A stretch of 64,000 nucleotides of DNA from a virus (Duplodnaviria > Heunggongvirae > Uroviricota > Caudoviricetes), in the IMG/VR virus record IMGVR_UViG_3300046519_000060, positions 64,001 through 128,000 of that record; one strand, given 5' to 3'. The notes beneath the pieces are model-generated. The model had not been told where the DNA came from, did not search any database, and was given only the letters and a program-made list of their open reading frames with translations. A program made the translations under genes and the position numbers. Shown here in pieces: positions 2,048-45,056 of the stretch (position 1 is its first letter; each line of letters begins with the position of its first letter).

Positions 2048-2125
2048 AACCAGTGACCGCGAAGCGCGTCCGAAGGACGGAACATGAAGTCCCAAGTTCT
2101 CCTATTGTGAATAGTTGATTACTTG

Positions 2126-2217
2126 TGTTCCGCCTTCGGCGCTTCGCTTCGCTCAGTTGACTTGTTTTATTTTTAACTTGTGACTGACTAGTAATTTAAC
2201 AGTTTGGTAACAGTGAA
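2126..2217. repeat. Copy A of a ~90-nt dispersed non-coding element (copy B at 51658-51750)
   Basis: Aligns by eye with 51658-51750. Shared blocks: CTTCGCTTCGCTCAG, GTTTT(A/G)TTTTT, GACTAGTAA(T/G)TTAACAGTTT, AACAG(T/C)GAA. Confidence 0.8.
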
Positions 2218-2440
2218 CAGTCGCTTCGCGAAGGAAGAAACCCCTCCCCAGAAAGACCCATATGAAACATCTGAACGCAAAAGTAGACCACTCCTAAGTG
2301 ATGCCGCGTTCAGGCTGTTTAAAGACGGTTGCGCACATGTAGCTGGTGGTTTCGTCTCTCCGCGCCAAGGAAGGTATTGGTCGCTGCGGGTCTATTTTGT
2401 CACATGGTTTGGTTCCACGTTTGATGCCGATGGCGACTGT

Positions 2441-3136
2441 CTACACCATCGTTGTTCTGTATTTATGCACGTTCAGATAACGCCAGAAATGCAGTTCCTT
2501 AACGTCATCTAGTTTCTTGCCTATCACGCTTATATAGGTGCTTTGAAATCCTTCAAAGGTCGTTGGTCGAATTGATGGGTCGGCTCTATATGCTAGTGCC
2601 AACGACACATACGCCATGTCGCTTTTCGGTTCACCTATCTTCCTGATGCGTTTGTTAGCCCGCTGTATGAGACGTTTCTGGGCCTCGTCTACGACTACAG
2701 GTGGATTTGATGGCACTTCACCTGTAGTCGGCTTCGCAGACCGCAAGAATGCGTTGGTATCATCTTTCTTGCATCGTTTCTTGGTAGGTATGATGGGTTT
2801 GGCGTAGCTATCCTCAGTTCCCATACTATTGAACGCGAACGTCATGCTCTTGTTCGCATCCGTACCAACATCGAACATACCTGCCAGAAGCATATGAAGT
2901 TCATAGTGCTCTCGCGCAGTGATGTACACGATATTCGTGGACGTGTCTGATCCTCCAAGTGATCTTGGATGAATATGATGTCCATGTATAACCGATCCCA
3001 ACAGCTTGTCTTTGGCATCCTTCCTTGAACTACTCCGACTGGCATATTCCTTCACCAGTTCGAAGTAGCGGATGGACACCTTGGTTCTCTGGAAGCCATA
3101 GACTTCCATGAGACTCTTTAGGTGATTTGTTAGCAT
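2441..3136 (-). mobile_element. Free-standing HNH endonuclease-like protein
   Basis: HHIHPRSLGGSDTSTNIVYITAREHYELHMLL is typical of T4-family HNH (mob-like) homing endonucleases. Confidence 0.7.
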
Positions 3137-3549
3137 TACTTCTTTTTCTTTCCCGGTCGCTTCTTGTCCCGGTTCTCTACGTCACGGATCGTCTGTGCTT
3201 GTTCGGCGGCTTCTTCGGCACGGATAGCGGCGTAGATCGCCTTCATCGCGTCCGTCACGGTCTTACCTTCTTCACGCTGCGCAATCATGCGGTCGAACGC
3301 TTTGGCACGTTCCTCGAACGTCAGTTCTTGTGCCTTGGCCTTCAATACCTTCTCGGCTGGTCCCCACGTCTGATGCGACGAGATACAGACCGTGATTTCC
3401 ATTCCATCGTAATCCGAAGTATCGGTTGCGACCACGTTGAAAATGTTCCCACTCGATGCAAACCGCTTGCGGCTGTCACGGTACATGTTGTCTGTACCGG
3501 CGATGATGCTTCGCGCGGTTGCTGCTACTTCAATTCTCAAATCCCGCAT
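3136..3549 (-). CDS. Hypothetical early protein
   Basis: 137-aa ORF, start/stop coupled to neighbours in the minus-strand operon. Confidence 0.7.
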   Translation of the reverse strand: MRDLRIEVAATARSIIAGTDNMYRDSRKRFASSGNIFNVVATDTSDYDGMEITVCISSHQTWGPAEKVLKAKAQELTFEERAKAFDRMIAQREEGKTVTDAMKAIYAAIRAEEAAEQAQTIRDVENRDKKRPGKKKK

Positions 3550-5100: not shown

Positions 5101-5129
5101 ATTGTACCAAACCTGCTTCTCACTGTCAA
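5101..5129 (-). promoter_or_regulatory. sigma70-type early promoter
   Basis: Minus strand TTGACA-N17-TACAAT. Confidence 0.8.
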
Positions 5130-45011: not shown

Positions 45012-45034
45012 CACTCCTTGACACTCCTTGACAC
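44998..45034 (+). repeat. Tandem 10-bp repeat (TTGACACTCC)x3 + TTGACAC
   Basis: Read directly; overlaps the gp3 stop codon and the uvsY promoter -35. Confidence 0.95.
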
Positions 45035-45056
45035 GAATTCCCAGACGTGTTAGAAT
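45028..45056 (+). promoter_or_regulatory. sigma70-type promoter for uvsY
   Basis: TTGACA-N17-TAGAAT. Confidence 0.8.

Follow-up and report, generated by a model that had tools for sequence, protein, structure and literature searches.

A conserved three-copy hairpin element in a T4-like soil phage and its possible role in replication initiation

Three copies of one element, placed at corresponding loci in three related genomes, are found in the DNA of the T4-like soil phage G000; judged from sequence, the element is a real, conserved, structured and non-coding module. The reading we prefer for it, which we put forward tentatively and rate somewhat short of an even chance, is that its copies might be replication start sites of the T4 kind, in which a promoter is coupled to an unwinding element. 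Such a role would account for a promoter that has no gene behind it, an AT-rich tract of unconstrained sequence, hairpins located on the strand that would be displaced, and the number and positions of the copies.

The window analysed here is a stretch of 64,000 nt, bases 64,001-128,000 of a 167,847-bp IMG/VR virus record (G000; 52% GC, estimated completeness 92%). G000 is a divergent, uncultured T4-like phage from soil; the only public run with its DNA is a rhizosphere metagenome, megablast returned no cultured relatives, and its UvsW is less than 50% identical to the UvsW of cyanophages and Pelagibacter phage, the closest cultured phages. The genes relevant here are gene 5 (baseplate hub and lysozyme; stop at 2047), uvsW (49527-51077), a gene of 168 aa located between uvsW and copy B, and the gene for the late sigma factor gp55 (start at 51933). 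The 64-kb window contains no tRNA or tmRNA, and CTAG is strongly avoided in G000 (117 sites in 168 kb). Gene 55 is itself preceded by an 8-codon leader ORF (window 51910-51936, ATG at 51910), whose TGA overlaps the ATG of gene 55 as ATGA; four genomes have an identical CATCATGAGGAACCC block at this junction, so translation of gene 55 may be coupled to that of the leader peptide. The -35 box of the gene 55 promoter is bracketed by an inverted repeat, GCCCAAAC (51824-51831) and GTTTGGGC (51857-51864).

An earlier note on this DNA had proposed, from an alignment made by eye at roughly 70% identity, that copies A and B represent a duplicated non-coding unit of about 90 nt. The colinear alignment is better than estimated: a repeat search paired 2142-2217 with 51675-51750 (76 nt, 82% identity, ungapped), and BLAST inside the 167.8-kb genome aligned 2126-2217 with 51658-51750 (81%, E 6.4e-17). 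Size and number of the copies, in turn, had been put too low, as the unit measures about 180-210 nt and a third copy (C) lies beyond the window, at genome positions 156,690-156,810. CGCGAAGCG and a hairpin do precede both A and B, as had been described (2058 and 51604; hairpins at 2067-2079 and 51612-51632), and these two sites are among only six forward copies of CGCGAAGCG in the genome. GCTTCGC and GCGAAGC likewise recur in both orientations, at 2059, 2141, 2146 and 2223 in copy A and at 51605 and 51679 in copy B. Exact matches to the 15-mer CTTCGCTTCGCTCAG occur in the genome solely at the three copies. The element holds no conserved ORF, in agreement with its proposed non-coding nature; the small ORFs seen in it by eye are non-conserved frames of 4-21 codons only.

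The conservation of the element was followed in two near-complete relatives, G001 (168,385 bp) and G002 (168,527 bp), with gp55 identities of 72-76%. An nhmmer profile detected exactly three elements per genome in G000, G001 and G002, all on one strand, and no further diverged copies past these three. The same loci are occupied in each genome: locus A lies past gene 5, locus B between uvsW plus the 168-aa gene and gene 55, and locus C between the gene 41 helicase and the gene 61 primase. Conservation in relatives, which the earlier note had named as a check, is thus apparent at three fixed loci in both. Single extra copies were found on a metagenome contig (L163, B type), an IMG/VR contig (L182, C type) and one bacterial contig. 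In more distant relatives (gp55 39-49% identical) the element is absent upstream of gene 55, and the family is therefore confined to a small clade.

Within G000, the paralogous copies A and B are 80% identical over 90 nt, compared with 68-79% for orthologous A copies and 66-74% for orthologous B copies. Given that these paralogues are as alike as the orthologues, or more so, the comparison suggests sequence exchange between copies A and B. The A copies of G001 and G002 (L143:2380-2440 and L144:2380-2440) contain in their spacer a 13-bp hairpin, ACATGAAGTCCCA ... TGGGACTTCATGT, of which copy A of G000 retains the left arm alone (2083-2095), as if its right half had been swapped for B-like sequence. 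Copy A of G000 is also adjoined by a homing endonuclease gene (2441-3136, minus strand), an insertion particular to this genome: in G001, copy A is followed by about 250 nt and then by the orthologue of the G000 minus-strand gene 3136-3549, with no endonuclease gene in between.

Read along the plus strand, the copies share a common plan. A left module, consisting of CGCGAAGCG and a hairpin right after the upstream stop codon, is present in A and B only. An AT-rich spacer leads to H1, a GC stem of 4-5 bp, and to the adjacent H2, which is formed by the 15-mer core; H2 is followed by an AT-rich tract of 45-65 nt, the least conserved part. The plan closes, in B and C only, with a conserved AAACCCGAAACAGC-like block and a minus-strand promoter, TTGACA-17-TATAAT.

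Copy A begins 11 nt past the gene 5 stop. Its left module (2058-2079, plus strand) directly follows that gene and combines CGCGAAGCG (2058-2066) with the hairpin CGTCC-GAA-GGACG (2067-2079); both G-N-A loops are on the plus strand, and the module is kept in the A copies of G001 and G002 with GAA or GTA as loop. H1 (2131-2141, minus strand) reads CGCC-TTC-GGCG on plus, which places a GAA loop on minus, and H2 (2142-2156, minus strand) is the invariant core CTTCGCTTCGCTCAG, with covarying outer pairs. On its own strand, H2 takes the form CT-GA-GC-GAA-GC-GA-AG, i.e. a GCGAAGC mini-hairpin extended by tandem G.A and two outer pairs. The AT-rich tract (2157-2221) has 26% GC in its lowest 50-nt window, ACTTGT/ACTAGT motifs, and AACAG at 2198, 2209 and 2216. 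Copy A ends in the palindrome CGCTTCGCGAAGG (2222-2234), whose first 9 nt are an exact inverted repeat of 2058-2066, and no promoter follows.

Copy B is preceded by a late-promoter box, CTAAATA (51587-51593, plus strand), which overlaps the stop of the 168-aa gene. In its left module (51604-51637, plus strand), CGCGAAGCG (51604-51612) is joined to an intrinsic terminator hairpin with a T run (51612-51637); the stem shows a compensatory c-g to a-t change between genomes, and the module is a canonical terminator in three of the four B copies. The spacer contains a perfect 14-nt palindrome, TTAACAATTGTTAA (51639-51652), to which TTAACAGTTTTTAA at 51729-51742 is similar. H1 (51661-51674, minus strand) is TCGCC-TAGC-GGCGA, with GCTA as the minus-strand loop, and H2 (51675-51689, minus strand) again carries the core CTTCGCTTCGCTCAG. 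The AT-rich tract (51690-51748), poorly conserved among orthologues, includes ACTAGTAA twice, 11 nt apart (51709 and 51720), and AACAG three times. Next to it lies the start region (51749-51762, minus strand) with AAACCCGAAACAGC, which is invariant in the B copies of G000, G001 and G002 as well as in C of G000, and has close variants in the other four promoter-bearing copies; a minus-strand RNA of copy B would start near 51756 with UUUCGGGUUU. The orphan early promoter at 51763-51791 (minus strand; TTGACA-17-TATAAT) points into the element. Long-range pairing of a left GCGAAGCG with H2 (8-9 bp in A and B) was ranked secondary, because copy C lacks this pairing and the outer pairs of H2 covary themselves.

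Compensatory changes support H1 and H2. Pair counting over nine copies gave 83.5% paired cells versus 75.9% in shuffles, and both sides change at three pairs: one closes H1 (CG, UA, AU), and the other two are the outer pairs of H2 (CG/UA vs UA/CG and AU/CG). Two mismatched H2 positions have become Watson-Crick pairs in L163 and in the C copies of G001 and G002. When RNAalifold was applied to the minus strand of the eight promoter-bearing copies, it predicted only H1 and H2 and nothing in the 5' 60 nt. The structured non-coding RNA offered by the earlier note as one of two readings hence stands with respect to these hairpins and falls short for the rest of the predicted RNA, which has no conserved structure. 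Rfam 15 yielded no gathering-score match in the whole window, and only chance-level matches around A and B (E above 2, searched at E up to 5).

The loops of both hairpins are biased towards one strand. On minus, H1 loops are GAA, GCTA, GGTA or GTCA (10 of 11 copies), H2 loops are GAA or GCA (9 of 11 copies), and the H2 mismatches are tandem G.A; these G-N-A and G-N-N-A loops correspond to the DNA mini-hairpin motif as defined in PMC13037366. Mini-hairpins of the GCGNAGC, CCGAAGG and GNNA-loop types are unusually stable as DNA, melting near 65-76 degrees C, are far weaker as RNA, and occur at the origins of phages G4, St-1 and alpha3 and at RSF1010 ssiA (PMC13037366). Nearest-neighbour folding, which is blind to this stability, misses H2 in 8 of 11 copies when used alone. 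In the left module the motif is found on the plus strand, which gives the element hairpin pairs on opposite strands. A U/T run after H1/H2 is missing from either strand of every copy, unlike the ordinary terminators of G000, which have one.

The minus-strand promoter matches the sigma70 consensus at 12 of 12 positions in all eight B and C copies, with no Shine-Dalgarno (SD) sequence or ORF behind it. This arrangement is rare in G000: there are 29 near-consensus promoters in the genome, a start codon follows 25 of them at a distance of up to about 60 nt, in nearly every case with an SD, and the promoters of B and C make up two of the four that are gene-less. They are also two of only four near-consensus promoters on the minus strand. 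Nearly all promoters of this set have the spacer ATTCCCAAACCTG and a short leader. Given its perfect TTGACA at -35, the B/C promoter is of the early type and does not conform to a MotA-dependent middle promoter. Copy A has no promoter in G000, G001 or G002. However, the nearest minus-strand early promoter lies at 5129, 2.9 kb away, with no recognisable terminator between, and from this arrangement we infer that early antisense transcription may reach copy A.

Several further transcription signals were noted. About 20 early promoters (e.g. 45028-45056), a PeSL-like family, share TTGACA-N3-ATTCCCAAACCTG-TATAAT and the leader CCTTTCCATCGAC, and TTTGGG often stands just upstream of them, creating an inverted repeat around the -35 box. 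In a second promoter class, with the spacer GTTTGGGG..TTTTGCTT (window 51850, window 59075 and genome 155,104), the early-promoter spacer motif CCCAAAC is present in inverted orientation. Beyond the window, at genome 17,152-17,340, two perfect sigma70 promoters are arranged in tandem, 99 nt apart and with no SD or ATG within 60 nt, the first being followed by a CTCAGG...CCTGAG hairpin; additional non-coding RNAs may be transcribed from them. Late promoters follow the consensus CTAAATA, which is also that of cyanophage-type T4 relatives, and TAAATA is found 45 times on plus and 8 times on minus, mostly 30-45 nt upstream of ATGs. A late box firing into the element is kept in three of four B copies (it is missing in L163) and in all four C copies; it was set aside as a functional part, as in B the terminator comes at once after the box.

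The AT-rich tracts have minimum 50-nt GC contents of 24-36%, versus 52% for the genome, and belong to the lowest 0.02-2% of windows, although many other intergenic regions are equally AT-rich. ACTAGT occurs 8-9 times per genome, of which 3-4 sites fall inside the roughly 600 nt of elements where 0.03 would be expected (more than 100-fold enrichment), and AACAG is enriched 3- to 10-fold in the elements, on the plus strand only. Owing to this enrichment, both motifs are possible protein sites. The spacings of the three AACAG are irregular (11 and 7 in A, 11 and 15 in B), and the iterons suggested by the earlier note could not be recognised as an evenly spaced array, AACAG x3 and the two ACTAGTAA of copy B being the only repeats of this kind. 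GC skew, which had been recommended as an indicator, turned out to be uninformative: its increase is monotonic, following the dominant gene strand, and neither A nor B nor C coincides with a turning point.

How might these parts work together in replication? Host RNA polymerase would start early in infection at the minus-strand sigma70 promoter of B and C, while copy A would be read through from the neighbouring minus-strand early operon. Transcription would then cross the AT-rich tract of 45-65 nt and reach the two adjacent GC hairpins. In the AT-rich tract the RNA might stay annealed as an R-loop and prime leftward leading-strand synthesis, and the displaced minus strand could fold into two very stable G-N-A mini-hairpins, either holding the bubble open or marking a loading or priming site for the opposite fork. 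Transcription, R-loop formation, priming and read-through into A are steps that we infer.

The T4 facts on which the earlier note had built this idea, i.e. a promoter with an unwinding element that forms an R-loop, and oriE near gene 5, are correct (PMC3016281, T4 annotation). T4 oriF and oriG comprise about 100 bp, with a promoter and a sequence-independent AT-rich unwinding element, and their transcript forms an R-loop; the variability of our tracts fits this, since the unwinding elements of T4 are likewise independent of sequence (PMC3016281). The T4 record puts oriE within gene 5, at its 3' end, and oriF 0.9 kb beyond uvsW; the direction of both is minus. Copy A adjoins gene 5, while copy B is found 0.5-0.7 kb beyond uvsW, firing back towards it, so that copies A and B are found at the T4 oriE and oriF positions with the same polarity. 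Copy C sits among replication genes, between gene 41 and gene 61, which is a point in favour of origins; it is near, not at, the position of T4 oriA, which follows gene 61, and its polarity is opposite to that of oriA. No sequence is shared with the T4 origins, and no mini-hairpins were found near T4 oriA, oriE or oriF.

Both sides of the earlier alternative, an origin or a structured RNA, are still the two readings that we rank highest: the conserved and non-coding character, the covarying hairpins and the promoter and AT tract of B and C have stood, whereas copy A is promoterless, the genome has 52% GC and T4-origin sequence is lacking. Additional points speak against origins. The AT-rich tracts are not exceptional, an iteron array is missing and GC skew is silent. 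The positional parallel was noticed post hoc, and the T4 origins are themselves found at boundaries of transcription, a place to be expected of any regulatory element.

Bacterial genomes contain sequences related to the hairpins. A 20-mer covering the 3' half of H1 and the whole of H2 was found in 71 stretches of a bacterial collection, where roughly 4-15 would be expected by chance, and the matches include 25-nt tandem arrays in one Acidobacteriota MAG, long palindromes in Gemmatimonadales and Sphingobium repeats. Rfam gave no match on these look-alike loci, and a search of the literature for the core sequence returned nothing relevant. The Acidobacteriota MAG JAZFRU01 (L184, L210, L217, L234 and about 15 other contigs) has a repeat family of many copies that is not in Rfam, the end of which is built from tandem 25-nt units, GGCGG-CTTCGCTTCGCTCAG-ATAAA, and then ...GTGTGAGAAATGCGG. 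A true relative of the element is present on a contig labelled Cupriavidus (L261, JAFAJB010000200.1; 12.3 kb, 56% GC), with 30 nt identical to H1 and H2 of copy B and the T-rich motif after them. At L261:4950-5350, 2.5 tandem units of 94 nt have CGCGAAGCG, a hairpin and GGACTTCAT before the core, as in the A copies, and these units are part of 2.2 kb of non-coding DNA that separates a resolvase gene from an HTH gene within a restriction-rich island. We rejected this locus as a plasmid or phage origin region, given its restriction enzymes, resolvase and HTH protein and the lack of any phage or replication protein. With this contig carrying a related unit, the hairpin unit is not unique to these phages. 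The link between the phage and soil-bacterial repeats may help to find the host.

The same components can be read in other ways. It is possible, if unlikely, that the element gives rise to short early non-coding RNAs that form one family. From their own promoters, B and C would each produce about 85-110 nt, beginning with the conserved UUUCGGGUUU, continuing through an A/U-rich body and closing with the twin hairpins, which would protect the 3' end; A would yield the same RNA once the 3' UTR of the minus-strand early operon is processed. Such an RNA might act in trans, or antisense to the 3' end of the convergent upstream gene, much as the oop RNA of phage lambda is antisense to the 3' end of a convergent gene. 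An RNA product would explain why a perfect orphan promoter is kept in 8/8 copies, why the 5' end is conserved, why covarying hairpins come at the expected 3' side and why A can dispense with a promoter; the G...A loop bias would suit GNNA-type RNA loops as well. It fits less well with the missing U tract after the hairpins and with a body that is less conserved than any other part and lacks a consensus structure. An Rfam family match is absent, the conserved parts have no complementary target in the phage genomes searched, and G-N-A triloop mini-hairpins are much weaker as RNA. The core also invites comparison with REP-like hairpins at transcript ends or boundaries, which would have no other role and be kept alike by recombination, as are shuffled PeSL cassettes; we regard this as unlikely. 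The plus-strand hairpins of the left module would end or stabilise late mRNAs coming from the left, and H2-H1 on the minus strand would stop or stabilise transcripts coming from the right. Copy A is indeed located between convergent operons, the left module stands right after a stop codon and is mostly a canonical terminator in B, and paralogues in G000 are as alike as orthologues. The recurrence of the H1/H2 20-mer in bacterial palindromic and tandem repeats strengthens this reading further. Together with the hairpin core on the bacterial defence-island contig, it counts against origins, as a structural hairpin of a generic kind accounts for it better than an origin signal specific to phages. 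Left unexplained are the 12/12 gene-less promoter in all 8 B and C copies, the enrichment of ACTAGT and AACAG, and the restriction to three fixed core-genome sites instead of many operon ends, and H2-H1 has no U tract.

Very unlikely, in our estimate, is a docking site for proteins (for topology at convergent transcription, recombination hot spots or packaging) or a once-mobile, MITE-like module. Palindromic ACTAGT and AAC-NN-GTT motifs cluster in the elements, the ends of copy A form a 9-nt perfect inverted repeat (CGCGAAGCG/CGCTTCGCG), and the related bacterial unit lies beside a resolvase. Yet no candidate binding protein was found, B and C have no terminal inverted repeat, and the copies keep to the same positions in every genome seen, which gives no hint of recent movement. 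A replication start site remains the interpretation we favour.

To our knowledge, the origins of T4-like phages other than those of T4 itself are essentially unmapped. We consider it rather doubtful that all origins of this T4-like clade share one consensus, comprising an orphan early promoter, an unwinding tract and a displaced-strand pair of DNA mini-hairpins that stabilise the R-loop or serve as ssi-like loading or priming signals. If true, T4-type phages would thereby gain their first sequence-defined origin family, and mini-hairpins of the GCGAAGC type their first natural role in a phage with double-stranded DNA. A lineage with three homologous candidate origins defined by sequence would change the picture of T4-like origins, and promoter, AT tract and displaced-strand hairpins are separable parts on a 200-bp fragment. 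Should the product be a small early RNA instead, it would constitute a conserved phage non-coding RNA family absent from Rfam. Either way, the element represents cis-acting DNA that gene-based annotation has overlooked.

How does the element compare with known systems? REP/BIME extragenic palindromes, which exist in tens to hundreds of copies and have no promoter or AT-rich tract, resemble it in their GC-rich imperfect hairpins after stop codons and differ from its three copies at fixed sites. A MITE-like element is not indicated, given loci that are identical in three genomes and a 9-nt terminal inverted repeat in A only, although the related unit on the bacterial contig leaves some doubt on this point. 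The 3' hairpin plus U tract of a classical sRNA is lacking. Like the element, the PeSLs of T4-like genomes are repeated units with a strong sigma70-like early promoter and stem-loops, whose copies seem to exchange sequence through recombination (PMC2839356, PMC4122927). However, PeSLs are numerous, occupy hyperplastic regions and serve as gene-strand promoters of small genes, and G000 carries such cassettes too; the element, with three core-region copies, an antisense gene-less promoter and hairpins 45-65 nt downstream of the start, does not belong to them.

We know of no T4-type primase that recognises mini-hairpins of this kind. The ssi-type sites of G4, St-1, alpha3 and RSF1010 (ssiA/ssiB) share with the element GCGAAGC/CCGAAGG sequences, G-N-A loops, tandem arrangement and adjacent AT-rich DNA, and the opposite-strand hairpins of the left module recall the inverted ssiA/ssiB pair; ssi-type sites, though, function on single-stranded templates and have dedicated primases to read them (PMC13037366). 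For the element, the likeness is one of motif only.

The closest parallels are the T4 origins, which share no local sequence motif with one another and for which the rules of R-loop formation are an open question (PMC3016281). T4 oriE depends on an early promoter and has 12-nt iterons (PMC3016281; Vaiskunaite et al. 1999 cited therein). It resembles copy A in its association with the gene 5 3' end and in short direct repeats; its transcription against gene 5 from an early-type promoter would have a counterpart in copy A if the putative read-through from 5129 takes place. Yet oriE lies inside gene 5, with even 12-nt iterons and the repEA/repEB genes, whereas copy A comes after the stop codon, has irregular repeats of 5-6 nt only and no promoter of its own; iterons of the oriE type are not seen in the element. 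T4 oriF [ori(uvsY)] and oriG [ori(34)] also consist of a promoter and a downstream A+T-rich tract (PMC3016281). Both parts are present at sequence level in B and C, and A has the tract and no minus-strand promoter within 2.9 kb. As in copy B, the T4 oriF promoter is located just past uvsW and fires back towards it. The T4 promoters fire before replication, a timing that the sigma70 consensus would predict for those of B and C. In contrast, the oriF and oriG promoters are MotA-dependent middle promoters, and those of B and C are perfect sigma70 early promoters; the T4 origin transcript also encodes uvsY, whereas the promoter of the element has no ORF downstream. Finally, the T4 origins have neither GC hairpins nor mutual homology, while the three copies of the element are homologous.
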